Position numbers and translations under genes: made by a program. Under the pieces are notes generated by a model. It was not told where the DNA came from. It searched no databases and saw only the letters and a program-made list of their open reading frames with translations. Shown here piece after piece: positions 36,192 through 46,208 of a stretch of DNA of 64,000 nt. Where the stretch lies: contig OZ024742.1 of NCBI GenBank assembly GCA_964016885.1, forward strand, positions 156,984,001 through 157,048,000, in the 5' to 3' direction. How positions within the stretch are numbered: the stretch's first letter is position 1; every line of letters begins with the position of its first letter. The DNA comes from Eledone cirrhosa (taxonomy: Eukaryota).

Positions 36192-36380
36192 GTATCAGAC
36201 TGGGGTTAGTACAACATCAATGTATCTACTGGAAACTACACATCGAGAGCACACCCAGGTGAACCTACAGTAACTGGATAATTCAATCCCTGGATGTTTC
36301 AATCACTAAATATGCATATAAATCGAAATTGTACCTGCAATATGGCAGATACCAATCGAATTGTTTGAGGCGGTGACATA

Positions 36381-37224
<844 letters not shown>

Positions 37225-40104: not shown

Positions 40105-40127
40105 ATATATATATGTATATATATATA

Positions 40128-40969
40128 TTCGCTCTTTGGAATCTCCTAAAGAATAATGGCAAGGCAGACATATATGAAAAGTGGCTAAACTCTACCCCAA
40201 TCATCCTCCCCCAAAAACTCCAAATAAAACACATCCCGAATGAACCAGAAAACCAACAAAGACTTAGGGAAAAGATGGCGTTAGAAAAATTAAAAATAGA
40301 AATAGAACTGTTGCGATTAAGAGCCTACCCCAACGAAGAAAAATTCAAGTCACTCGACCACCAGATGGACACAGAAATCTCAAAGCACTCTGAAGGCCTA
40401 CTCTACGAAAAAACCTTAAAACTTTGGAGAGAAAACTGTGAGGACGAATAACTATCATCCCTCCAGCGATGGGAAAAAAACGCCACCTGGTTCAACAACT
40501 ACGAAATGCACTTCAAAAATGAACAACATACAGGTAACCCATTTTTAAAACAAACTAAAACTCACACACCACATGCACAACAAATTAAAAAAAAGTAACA
40601 AAGCGTCCAACATACCCCCAGCAAAACTATAACGATAATCCCAGAAACCATAGACAAAACTATAACCCTAATAACAAAAACCGAAGATCCCCGAACACAA
40701 GTCAGGACCCGATCCGCAGATCACAACCCACATAAAACCTATTCCCAAACCGTAGACCCCTGCCTACACAGAGCCTGTTCCAAAACCGTAGATGCCCACC
40801 CATACGAAGGAACAACATTTACAACCCGGACTATCAACAAACCGAACCCCAATACGCCCGAAACATCTATACAAGACCACACAACAACAGGGGAAATGCC
40901 ATTAGATATAATAATACCATTGAAAAAACATTCCAGAAAAATCATTTTTTAGACCAAGGCTACAGGTAA
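40128..40969 (+). pseudogene. PLE upstream ORF1 (coiled-coil-like followed by N/R/Q/P-rich tail), disrupted
   Basis: ALWNLLKNNGKADIYEKW..LREKMALEKLKIEIELLRLRA; later frame QNYNDNPRNHRQNY...RYNNTIEKTFQKNHFLDQGYR*. Confidence 0.6.
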
Positions 40970-43241
40970 AACGACACCCGGTGGCACAAACCGATTTTGA
41001 AAAACCGAAAATAATCAACCTTTCAAATACAAACCTCTCAGCCCAACAAGTAAAAATTATCTCCAAAGGACTGAAATTTAGACCAACACCACAATACTCT
41101 AACCCCAAAGAGATAAATGACGATATCTCACACTTCTGTAGAAAATTACGTCTCACAGAGGAATTCTCTGACAAGGAGAATAACGACGAATCAATTGTAG
41201 GAAATAAAAGCAGCTACAATCCAACAAAAGAGTTCTGGACAAATTTTGTGACCACATAGCTACCTTCCCATACCATGAACTACCGCAACCTAAACCCAAA
41301 CCCAACAAGAGTCGAAGGGAAAGGGAGATTATCCATGAACTAAAAAACAAAACGGACATTATAATTAAGGAAGCGGACAAGGGAAGTACTGTTGTCATTA
41401 TGGAGGCTGAAAAATATAAAAATTCTATGTTCTCTCTCTTACAAAATACTAATTACTATGAAAGAGTAAATAACTACCAGCAATCAAAAACAATGACCAG
41501 ATTAAACACACTGATTTATCGATACCAGGAAGACAAAACTAAAAAGGATCGCGATTATTTAACACATTTTGAATATAAACCCAGCAACCTTTACGGAATT
41601 CCGAAGATCCACAAGTGTAAAATAATTAACGATGCCTGTAAACAAACCACCTCAGCCTGCGTGAACACGCAATACCCCACATACCTTAAATTAAGACCTA
41701 TTGTAGCGGGCCCACAATGTGAAGCACACAGACTGAGCAACTTTATAGACATACTACTAAAACCAATTCTCAAACACATACCAAGCCTTATTAGAGACGA
41801 TCTGGACCTCTTAAACCACCTCCCCAAACATGTCAACAACGACACTATTATTGTGTCTTTCGATGTAGTGAATCTCTACACAACGATCCCATACTAATAC
41901 GGACTAGAAGCAATAGGATTCTGGCTAGAGAAATATCACAATGAGATACCTGACAGAATAGAAAAAAGCTTCATCACCGAGTGCTTAAAATTCATCTTAC
42001 AGAACAACTTTTTTGATTTCGATGGCAGTACTTACAGGCAAATATCGGGGACTGCAATGGGTACAAAAACCACTCCAACTTATGCCAACTTTGTCATGGC
42101 ATACTTAGAAGTCCAGATATATGAACAGTCCAAATCAAAATACGGATAGAACTTCTACAAATATTTATCAGAGAATTGGAAACGCTAATTGGATGATTGT
42201 CTCATTCTTTGGTCCAGCACACTCGACCAACTGAAGTATTTCAAAAACTTAATAAACGGCATCAATAACCACATCCAATTCCCAATGGAATACAACCAAG
42301 ATCAACTCCCATTTCTGGACATCTTAATCTTAAAAAAAGACACACATATTGAAACTGACATACACTACAAACCAACAGATTCCAAACAATACCTACTATT
42401 CACCTCCAACCATCCAAAGCATACGAAGACGAACATTCCTTTTAACCTAGCAAGAAGAATTTGCACAATTGTCTCCAATTATGAAACGCGAAATAAAAGA
42501 CTTCAAGAATTAAAGGAAATTCTACTCGAAAGAAAGTACCCACTATTACTAATAAATAATGGAATAGAAAGGGCTAAAGCAATAGGCATTGATGAATTAC
42601 GAAAACAGAAACAAATTCAAGGTACGTCCAATATTCTATCAAATATCGCAACACATAACCCAAGAAATTCGGAAGCTTACAACACTATTCACAAGAACAT
42701 CCCACTACTATAACAACACCCAAGAATGAAAAAAGCCCTTGAAACACAAAAAATAATCAAAAGCAGAAGACAACCGAAATCACTGAAAACATTACTCACC
42801 AATGCCAAATTACCTACCACAAACCCACAACCAAGTGTCAAAAAATGTGGTCGCTCTAATTGTGGAACCTGCACTCACCTCATTGAAGGCAACACGTATA
42901 CATTTAAATCAGGACAAAATTTTACTGTAAAAAATAACTTCACTTGCTCATCAAAAAATCTACTTCATGACATTAAATGTAAAGGATGCAATGTAGATTA
43001 TATAGGACAAACTAAACTCACACTCACAAACAGAATGACAGTTCATCGCCAACAATTACGTGAACTAACCACGAGACAGATACCACTAAGTGAATATCTA
43101 GACATATTCGCAAGTAATAAGACACACAAATTCCGATCCTTCCCATTTTACCTTTGCGCTAAGAATACAACAGAACAATTACGAATACATAAGGAAAATA
43201 TGTTTATTCAAAAATATAAACCAGCATTAAATATGGTTTAA
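40948..43241 (+). pseudogene. PLE reverse transcriptase + GIY-YIG endonuclease ORF, disrupted
   Basis: IINLS..KGLKFRPTP, ADKG, LYGIPKIHK, LRPIV, SFDVVNLYT, GTAMGT, R*LDDC (YLDD with Y>stop), LPFLD, CGRSNCGTC, YIGQT..RMTVH. Confidence 0.9.
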
Positions 43242-43715
43242 TATACATTATTATAACATGCTAACCATCCAAACAGCCACATACACGCACACATTACACC
43301 TACATTAGAAAATAAAAAAACCCGAACTAAATAAAACTTAACATACGTTTGCACTGACAATACAACAGAACAAATACGAATAAGTAAGGAAAATATGTTC
43401 ATTCAAAAATATTCCTACTAAAGGAATCATTTTCCTACACACACACACACAATATATAGATATTCTCTTCATCTTAACATGCTAACCATACTCCCACACA
43501 CATAACACCCATACACACACATTACAACCCCCGCACCCCACACACAACTCCCCTCCCCCATTTCTACTAATAGAATCACTTTCCTACACACATATATACA
43601 CACACACAAAATATATACTCTCTCCATCTTAACATACTCCCACACACACACCTAACACCCATATACACACACACACAACTCCCTCCCCCATTTCTACTAA
43701 TAGAATCATCTTCCA

Positions 43716-43746
<31 letters not shown>

Positions 43747-44305
43747 AGCACACACATAAACATACATATCTTTACTTTCTTTATTCAATAAAAAATCTAA
43801 ATTCTGACACCCCAGCAAAAAAACATATTTACTGAACCAGAACAATTCTCCCATCCCATTTCTCTTGACCATTATCTTTTACTTATCATAACATTCTCTA
43901 AAAAGGCTTACAGATTGGATTTCAAAATAAGGACGCGAAAATGTAATGAAAACTTGTTCACGTGACAGCCATAATTTCATTTATAACCAATCAAATTACG
44001 TTTATTTTAAAAAAAAGCCTTGGTGAGCCCCCTTTTTTTAAGTAAAAAGAAATTCAAACACTCATATATGAAAAAACCACCTGTGAACCCCCCCCCCCCC
44101 CCCCCCACCACCACCACCACCACCCACCCCGTTTGAAGAACTTTGTAACGTGAACTGGCGTGAAATTTATTATAATTATTGACCAACCAATCAAATTACT
44201 TTTCGAAAAACCTGGCATTTCGAGCCACTTTTTCCATATAAAACAAGTAACATTCAGAGACCGACCAGATGTGAGAAAAACCACAGACCTTCCATCTCAA
44301 CTCTA

Positions 44306-44342
44306 CTTTTGAAAAGCAGAAGAAACTGCGAAACCCGTAAAG
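44306..44342 (+). ncRNA. Minimal hammerhead, U3-A8 core variant
   Basis: ctt TTGAAAA gcag aagaaa ctgc GAAA cccg TA aag. Confidence 0.6.
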
Positions 44343-44408
44343 GAACCAAATAAATATATATATATTTTTTTTAAATACCCAGTTGCATTTTCGATTTCAT
44401 CTTTTTTT

Positions 44409-44910: not shown

Positions 44911-46208
44911 TGATGAAGGACTAACTTTATTCATATGTAACCCATTAGCAACCACGCAGCACGTTTATTCTCATATTTACACATATTTTTTCCCCCGGTG
45001 TGATCCGTCTATTTCGTTCTTACTGCTTCCTCTTTCTCTATATCTTTACCCTCTCTAACAGTCACTCTCTCTGTTAGCCCCTTCCTCACCCTTCACTCAC
45101 TCACTCTCTGTTACTACCTCTCCTCCTCCTCCTTCTTCCCGTTTGGCCTGTGCGTAATTCTTTTCTTTCGCACCCTTGGTCAGGCAGGTTCGCTTGTCGT
45201 CTCTCTCTCGTCTACGATTTCACAGAACTTATGTTCACCGAATTCACAGACTAGATTCCTTCTTCCCCCATTAGACCTGTACGGAATTCCTTCCTTGCTC
45301 ACATTCCAACCAGGTTTGATGGTCTTTATTCTCTCTCGTTCACGATTTCACCGAACTTATATTCATGGAAATTTGGGAATTGACTCCTTCTCCCTCACTT
45401 TTCGTTGATTCACCATCTTTGTTTGTTTATACTCTCGTGTTCTCTTTATTTACGTGTCCCAACTACTTTTTTTAGCCGTTGCTCGCACCAACCGGAGGTA
45501 TATGGTCTTTAAAGCGACGAAATACCAATGATGGTTGGAAGATCACTGATGAAGGACTAACTTTATTCATATGTAACCCATTAGCAACCACGCAGCACGT
45601 TTATTCTCATATTTACACATATTTTTCCCCCCGCTGTGACCCGTCTATTTCGTTCTTACTGCTTCCTCTTTCTCTGTATCTTTACCCTCTCTAACAGTCA
45701 CTCTCTCTGTTAGCTTCTTCCTCACCCTTCACTCACTCACTCTCTGTTACTACCTCTCCTCCTCCTCCTTCTTCCCGTTTGACCTGTGCGTAATTATTTT
45801 CTTTCGCACCCTTGGTCAGGCAGGTTCGCTTGTCGTCTCTCTCTCGTCTACGATTTCACAGAACTTATGTTCACCGAATTCACAGACTAGATTCCTTCTT
45901 CCCCCATTAGACCTGTACGGAATTCCTTCCTTGCTCACATTCCAACCAGGTTTGATGGTCTTTATTCTTTCTTGTTCACGATTTCACCAAACTTATATTC
46001 ATGGAAATTTGGGACTTGACTCCTTCTTCCTCACTTTTCGTTGCTTCACCATCTTTGTTTGTTTACACTCTCATGTCCCCTTTATTTACGTGTCCGAACT
46101 ACTTTGTTTAGCCGTTGCTCGCACCAACCGGAGGTATATGGTCTTTAAAACGATGAAATGCCAATGATGGTTGGAAGATCACTGATGAAGAACTAACTTT
46201 ATTCATAT
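44911..46208. repeat. 636-bp tandem duplication plus ~25-nt third start, flanked by (TA)n
   Basis: tgatgaag at 44911, 45547 and 46183; units highly similar. Confidence 0.9.

Follow-up and report, generated by a model that had tools for sequence, protein, structure and literature searches.

A decayed Penelope-like element and its family

The window, a stretch of 64,000 nucleotides from the Eledone cirrhosa assembly GCA_964016885.1 (contig OZ024742.1), carries on its forward strand a decayed, 5'-truncated Penelope-like element (PLE) of the Neptune type, which we assign to family A (Table 1). Compared with L035, a natural intact copy of this family, the window copy lacks the first 105 codons of ORF1. 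It has a 1-nt deletion near 40587 and stops in the remainder of that frame, a 10-nt deletion at 41228, and several stops, one of which falls on the Tyr of YLDD (42186-42188). The window copy is dead, and for that reason function has to be judged from the family only.

In L035 both frames are intact, with an ORF1 of 400 aa and an ORF2 of 773 codons that includes the reverse transcriptase (RT), a Cys-rich linker and GIY-YIG. The pairing that defines endonuclease-bearing (EN+) PLEs, a PLE-type RT with a C-terminal GIY-YIG domain, is found by Pfam on L035 (RVT_1 weak at E 5.9e-06, which falls below the cut-off; GIY-YIG at E 1.6e-05) and by motifs in the window. Between RT and EN lies a CX2-5CxxC linker with Neptune-like spacing, as judged by eye against supplementary Fig. 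S2 of PMC8557442. Direct and inverted terminal repeats (pLTRs) are present in L035 and other copies, and the 3' stretch of the window copy recurs in L035 in both orientations by blastn. Rfam found no hammerhead in seven loci and a simple motif scan of family A was negative, in searches that minimal hammerheads can escape; the only Rfam matches were microsatellite-driven miRNA ones below threshold.

Table 1. Features of the family A element in the window (+, forward strand).
Feature	Position	Strand	Basis
Decayed 5'-truncated Neptune-type PLE, family A, with 3' pLTR-like region	40127..44368	+	pairwise alignment to intact copy L035
ORF1 remnant, covering residues 106-400 of the family protein (400 aa)	40128..41014	+	tblastn against L035 ORF1; translations
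Slippery heptamer T_TTT_TTA (Phe-Leu), in ORF1 phase	40945..40951	+	family A junctions, families B and C, 12 foreign loci
Weak hairpin GCUAC/GUGGC after 7-nt spacer; in family A, other families without it	40959..40985	+	
TAA private to the window copy (1/30 loci), source of the 'aaaacg' loop	40967..40969	+	
Family ORF1 stop, 20 codons past the Leu codon	41012..41014	+	25/27 T6 loci
ORF2 in the -1 frame: RT, Cys-rich linker, GIY-YIG; broken in the window copy	40945..43241	+	
Cys-rich linker CGRSNCGTC in ORF2	42846-42872	+	
YIGQT of the GIY-YIG endonuclease in ORF2	42999-43013	+	
3' untranslated and pLTR-like repeat region	43242..44368	+	blastn to L035

The ORF1/ORF2 junction in three families of one genome

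The sequence-only reading had proposed a GIY-YIG PLE lineage in which separate ORF1 and RT-EN frames are joined by a -1 shift at U_UUU_UUA, and its description of the junction was accurate: TTTTTTA stands in ORF1 phase (…NHFLDQGYR*), and the -1 frame is open from 40924, with no ATG ahead of the RT motifs. The proposal itself withstood those attempts at refutation that could be run on sequences. A search of the animal's own 3.0-Gb genome gave 1322 candidates, of which 40 were scored; the non-self family A copies among them are 92-93% identical. We chose 30 family A loci by DNA likeness alone, the window included. The T-run is T6 in 27 of these and T5, T7 and T8 once each, and in 25 of the 27 T6 loci ORF1 ends 22 codons from the Phe, at the TAA that matches 41012-41014. 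Across the whole genome, the junction flanks with a gap of 4-8 bases are matched at 318 places, 286 of which carry exactly T6A. Conservation of the heptamer, which the reading had made a test, thus extends over the family, most of whose copies are split, and the T-run is not a copy-specific indel. Its presence exceeds what chance would give, as only two runs of at least six T occur in 3.4 kb of family A coding DNA, the heptamer among them. The first ATG of family A ORF2 lies 155 codons in, after the conserved IINLS, KGLKF and KEADKG (copy L048).

Two further families, B and C, were found with a distant ORF1 relative as query. Both have T_TTT_TTA in ORF1 phase and ORF2 in the -1 frame, and the heptamer is the sole run of at least six T in their 3.5 kb of coding DNA. 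Family B is about 44% identical to family A in ORF1 and 57% in ORF2. Family C, with 40 matches at 99-100% identity and the same junction at 20 of 20 loci, is very young by its sequence. Among 39 fetched family B loci, about half of them chosen for odd frame lengths, 22 are split, eight are in fused phase, eight are out of phase and one has a deletion at the junction. On the tree the 8 fused rows require 8 changes and are thus scattered; a set of six identical copies consists of split ones only. Family B (L077-L116) also carries a hypervariable poly-C of 7 up to about 25 C in the ORF overlap after the heptamer, which often breaks or fuses the frames, through real instability or assembly error. 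A search with a foreign ORF2 start gave 150 matches; the 30 loci that were fetched all belong to family A or B.

Relatives in other organisms

A profile search with ORF1, also suggested by the sequence-only reading, returned 770 representatives at E<=0.001. No fused relative occurs among the best 150 ORF1 matches (<=553 aa) or among the best 120 of 509 ORF2 relatives (478-803 aa); ORF1 relatives of 701-2000 aa were not found, which is weak evidence, and viral contigs yielded no relative. Of the 78 ORF1 relatives that reach 330 aa, 68 have Phe-Leu within their final 45 residues; the counts are 1/78 and 3/78 for the two preceding intervals and 16/120 for ORF2 relatives. The residues K, Q, E, M and W, whose codons are unable to give the first T, never precede Phe-Leu (0/67 against a background of 17.9%, in a set of related rows that comprises the 68 minus one RT-containing fragment).

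At the DNA level, 12 of 87 fetched foreign loci have T_TTT_TTA or T_TTT_TTG in phase behind an open 0-frame, which is long in most of them, the decayed L144 having 38 codons. The remaining 75 mostly belong to different clades or are without the junction; L202 has T5, and L203 and L220, partial N-terminal matches, have no ORF1 junction. Families A, B and C and the 12 foreign loci make up 15 T6R junctions, and in each of them a stop codon interrupts the -1 frame 0-15 codons before the heptamer. A closure this near brackets the point of ribosome entry.

In a FastTree phylogeny of the RT, built without named references, one branch of 30 rows (support 100) contains nine rows of the frameshift type. 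A different branch is made up of elements that lack the linker and have long in-frame N-termini, and a Zn-finger linker together with one long ORF is found in L155 and L223. From these comparisons the frameshift architecture emerges as a real and ancient one, widespread in a Neptune-type clade.

Some loci sit at the edges of this picture. L151 and L159, apart from the 30-row branch, have T_TTT_TTA behind 0-frames of 312 and 631 codons with no match to the ORF1 profile, and possibly represent a separate ORF1 type or a separate origin. The slip candidates L204 and L175 were left out of the counts (unclear geometry; distant EN-less branch). Around 1215 in L181, a distant element with no endonuclease detected, A_AAA_AAC stands in a like geometry, with a 0-frame stop 12 codons from the first slip codon and CCC-AAA-rich repeats thereafter; L181 is outside the 15 T6R junctions, and L181 and L204 are within the 16 of the folding test. 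Several relatives are filed as bacterial proteins (P0019, P0039, P0046, P0061, P0118) or as contigs of metagenome-assembled genomes (L217-L223), from bivalve gill symbionts and others, and are probably host DNA in the bins.

How might ORF2 be expressed?

What is directly observed is how the junction is laid out, that heptamer and phase are conserved, and that no ATG, AG or RNA fold is common to the junctions. On these grounds we consider a programmed -1 ribosomal frameshift at the ORF1/RT-GIY-YIG junction very probable. The heptamer has the X_XXY_YYZ form of a canonical -1 site, stands in 0-frame phase within the ORF overlap, and is conserved. We envision a scenario whereby ORF1 and RT-GIY-YIG are read from overlapping frames with U_UUU_UUA/G at the junction. 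Most ribosomes would stop and release ORF1, and a minority would slip back by one base, presumably with tRNA-Phe and tRNA-Leu moving in tandem, to produce an ORF1-RT-EN fusion with a predicted length of about 1,144 aa in family A. ORF1 would thereby be made in excess over the enzyme.

Alternatively, ORF2 might be translated on its own, by ribosomes that reinitiate or initiate internally at an NTG in the overlap that corresponds to a conserved ORF1 Trp, with the T-run serving some other role. The site reads ATG in family B, GTG in family A and CTG in L137, five of the six closest ORF2 relatives (P0008-P0012) have been gene-called from a start at about this position, and a fixed stop distance might suit a stop-restart mechanism. 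However, only 2 of 15 junctions have an ATG ahead of the first RT motif, and the site holds none of ATG, GTG, CTG and TTG in the youngest family, C, or in L142, L144, L145 and L217. No stop-start overlap is seen at the ORF1 stop, and the fixed Phe-Leu phase would go unexplained. The NTG itself looks like a by-product, because DTRW differs between families A and B only at positions synonymous in ORF1. We therefore regard separate initiation as very unlikely. Even less credible is slippage of the RNA polymerase, which would add one U at T6 and so fuse the frames in some transcripts. One extra T does fuse them (L026), and T7 is found in 4 of the first 100 listed genomic junctions, yet this rate fits ordinary homopolymer slips or assembly error (there is one T5 in the same 100, and one T8), and polymerase slippage is indifferent to codon phase, whereas the run is fixed as xxT-TTT-TTR.

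Splicing is a still more remote prospect. Here TTTTTTAG would act as a 3' splice acceptor and ORF2 would be translated from spliced RNA, an idea favoured by T6AG in all three families of this genome and in 7 of 12 foreign loci, by a G-starting codon after Phe-Leu in 48 of 68 ORF1 relatives, and by the conserved introns that PLEs can have according to a figure legend (PMC8557442). Against it, the run continues as T6GT or T6AT in 5 of 15 DNA junctions, and an AG is impossible in 20 of the 68 proteins. The downstream 16-mer without the T-run has a single genomic match, which by eye adjoins unrelated DNA; this last argument is a weak point, as PLEs may keep introns. With AG missing in 5 and ATG missing in 13 of 15 junctions, both splicing and an own start for ORF2 are argued against; neither signal, each named beforehand as a potential refutation, is conserved at the ORF2 start. 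Least likely by far is that the active element has a single ORF and that the split is a copy-specific indel, a reading already refuted for families A-C. Fused copies do exist, through T7 in family A and through poly-C length variants in family B (8 of 39 loci, partly picked for odd frames), and Zn-finger PLEs with one long ORF occur elsewhere (L155, L223). Still, the split state prevails at 286 of 318 family A junctions, the fused B copies are scattered, six identical B copies are all split, and T6 is kept at all 20 family C loci.

What might stimulate the shift?

The sequence-only reading had likened the region downstream of the heptamer to the HIV-1 signal, with a stem and a pseudoknot. The GCUAC/GUGGC hairpin lies where it was placed, behind a 7-nt spacer, and is the minimum-free-energy fold of the window copy. 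It is weak, however, as equally good folds arise in 53 of 200 shuffles across 59 nt (12 of 200 on a hand-picked 34 nt). The pseudoknot has to be rejected because its loop, 'aaaacg', is private to the window copy among 30 loci, and so is the ORF1 stop 15 nt downstream of the heptamer. As to covariation of the stem, by eye at most three base pairs could be common to families A and B, and none is shared with C. Across 16 junctions there is no common stimulatory fold (mean z -0.37, in a test of local folding). A z below -2 is reached at one of the 16 (L137), family A scores -0.31, the family C junction is essentially unfolded at -0.8 kcal/mol, and a simple pseudoknot search on the junctions did no better than on shuffles.

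The position of the ORF1 stop shows more regularity. In the 91 of 154 ORF1 relatives with Phe-Leu in the last 45 aa, the distance from Phe to the protein end is exactly 12 aa in 24, 22 aa in nine and 32-33 aa in seven. A distance of 12 aa leaves ten codons between the Leu codon and the stop. Shorter spacings occur in only two of the 91, both fragment-like, and a random stop would be expected below 12 in 36-49% of cases; among the DNA junctions, seven of 15 have a spacing of 12 and the other eight a longer one. Within the 12-aa class, the ten C-terminal residues are 10% identical between proteins. On the ORF1 tree this class is clustered (3 changes against 11.9 when shuffled), implying inheritance as opposed to many independent origins. 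Comparison of the proteins thus indicates an inherited spacing that has been retained while the tail sequence turned over. Other spacings are found in 67 of the 91 proteins, the window's family included, and the 22-aa peak is largely one clade, to which that family belongs.

As this gap amounts to about one ribosome length, a terminating ribosome suggests itself as the stimulator. Tentatively, and by analogy, a ribosome terminating at the ORF1 stop might act as a structure-free roadblock that holds the trailing ribosome on U_UUU_UUA/G; we rate this as possible and somewhat doubtful. The terminating ribosome would sit one disome spacing downstream, at ten codons, or at 20 or 30 for longer queues. 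In family A, where the gap is 20 codons, that part would have to fall to a second ribosome in the queue or to the weak hairpin. The same spacing pattern could also arise if the protein itself required a tail of ten residues or more, from long-range RNA pairing or from a trans-acting protein.

Some precedent for a roadblock is found in published work. When a ribosome is stalled at UGA in engineered E. coli reporters, it stimulates the -1 shift of the trailing one about two-fold, with a peak at a 9-codon spacer (PMC6815119). The A-sites of mouse disomes lie ten codons from each other, and a second state adds one codon (PMC7397865). Bacterial ribosomes queue behind arrested stop codons (PMC7544508), and in SARS-CoV-2 and PEMV the stop position modulates shifting, beside RNA structure (PMC8168617, PMC4737148). 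Like the E. coli reporters, the PLE junctions have a heptamer about one ribosome length before a stop and do without RNA structure. The reporter system is bacterial and artificial with its 9-codon peak (PMC6815119), in contrast to the PLE gap of ten codons, which is natural and eukaryotic and whose role we infer. If the stop spacing were functional, these elements would offer a natural eukaryotic case of collision-driven programmed frameshifting, which in the literature searched we found demonstrated only for engineered bacterial reporters. If the terminating-ribosome model were true, enzyme output would rise with ribosome load and slow termination.

The ORF1 protein

A predicted model of ORF1, based on an alignment of 86 sequences, consists of long helices with a pLDDT of about 90 or more over residues 81-250. 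The tail is predicted to be disordered, is rich in Asn, Arg and Gln, and has a pI of 11.3. Pfam searches on the 86 members gave no family common to more than two of them, a sequence search of solved structures with ORF1 returned coiled coils only, and the best VIA match, with Z 8.7 and an rmsd of 6.6 Å, amounts to a generic helical bundle. An atlas lead of 0.84 to PNMA/gag clusters had pointed to a gag or capsid protein and was not confirmed by three fold searches. We infer that ORF1 may act as a helical particle protein that binds RNA.

A DT[RGQ]W motif (window 40973-40984; P0001-P0006, P0128, P0208) is conserved in the ORF1 tail of one subclade and has been lost by family C. Lying 3' of the slip site, it is a C-terminal motif of the unshifted ORF1 and absent from the would-be fusion.

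Relation to known elements

In HIV-1, the gag-pol -1 frameshift takes place at U_UUU_UUA, with a structural ORF upstream and the enzyme in the -1 frame. The PLE junction has the same heptamer and the same succession of a structural ORF and an enzyme in the -1 frame; it differs from HIV-1 in that no stem-loop is conserved, no capsid match is found for ORF1, and neither a protease nor an integrase is seen.

Among PLEs, the elements in which a pseudoknot accompanies a frameshift are probably those of the EN-less Athena type. According to the legend to Fig. 1 of PMC8557442 and of its preprint, which names no clade, ORF1 of PLEs is in some cases 'separated by a frameshift with a pseudoknot', and the elements so described resemble ours in having a helical ORF1 upstream of a PLE RT and a frameshift link between the two. 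EN+ PLEs are called single-ORF by Craig et al. 2021 (PMC8557442), which also reports Neptune as paraphyletic; single-ORF EN+ elements are contrasted with two-ORF EN-less ones in PMC6431247; and the accessible text of PMC3846280 and PMC5408684 adds no frameshift detail. Family A is like the Neptune-type EN+ PLEs described there in its RT, its CX2-5CxxC linker, its C-terminal GIY-YIG with CCHH residues, and its pLTR-like direct and inverted repeats; the linker spacing is like that of Neptune1_Nv and DrerioNep1 and unlike that of Nematis (PMC8557442). It is unlike the canonical single-ORF EN+ PLEs in that ORF1 is separate and ORF2 lies in the -1 frame. No report of a frameshift in EN+ PLEs was found in the literature searched, and earlier primary accounts may already show Neptune-type ORF1 frameshifts.

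If our reading of the junction as a programmed frameshift holds, the description of endonuclease-bearing PLEs as single-ORF elements changes. The arbitrary methionine starts of hundreds of RT-GIY-YIG proteins in databases would be explained, and an unannotated ORF1 family would be assigned a role. These elements would also provide many natural, independent -1 frameshift cassettes without an obvious RNA stimulator.

Other features of the window and of related copies

Copies of families A, B and C often adjoin (TA)n or (CA)n microsatellites (flanks of L077 and L111; L226, L235, L237), and some copies are 5'-truncated within the ORF overlap. On the reverse strand of the window, a 219-codon frame at 36306-36965 contains SDKTGNLY, has no tblastn match to family A ORF2 and no useful Pfam match, and presumably recalls the N-terminal part of another Penelope-like RT. 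Downstream of the element, at 44911-46054, a unit is duplicated at a spacing of 636 nt (97% over 300 nt), with internal repeats of 128 nt.
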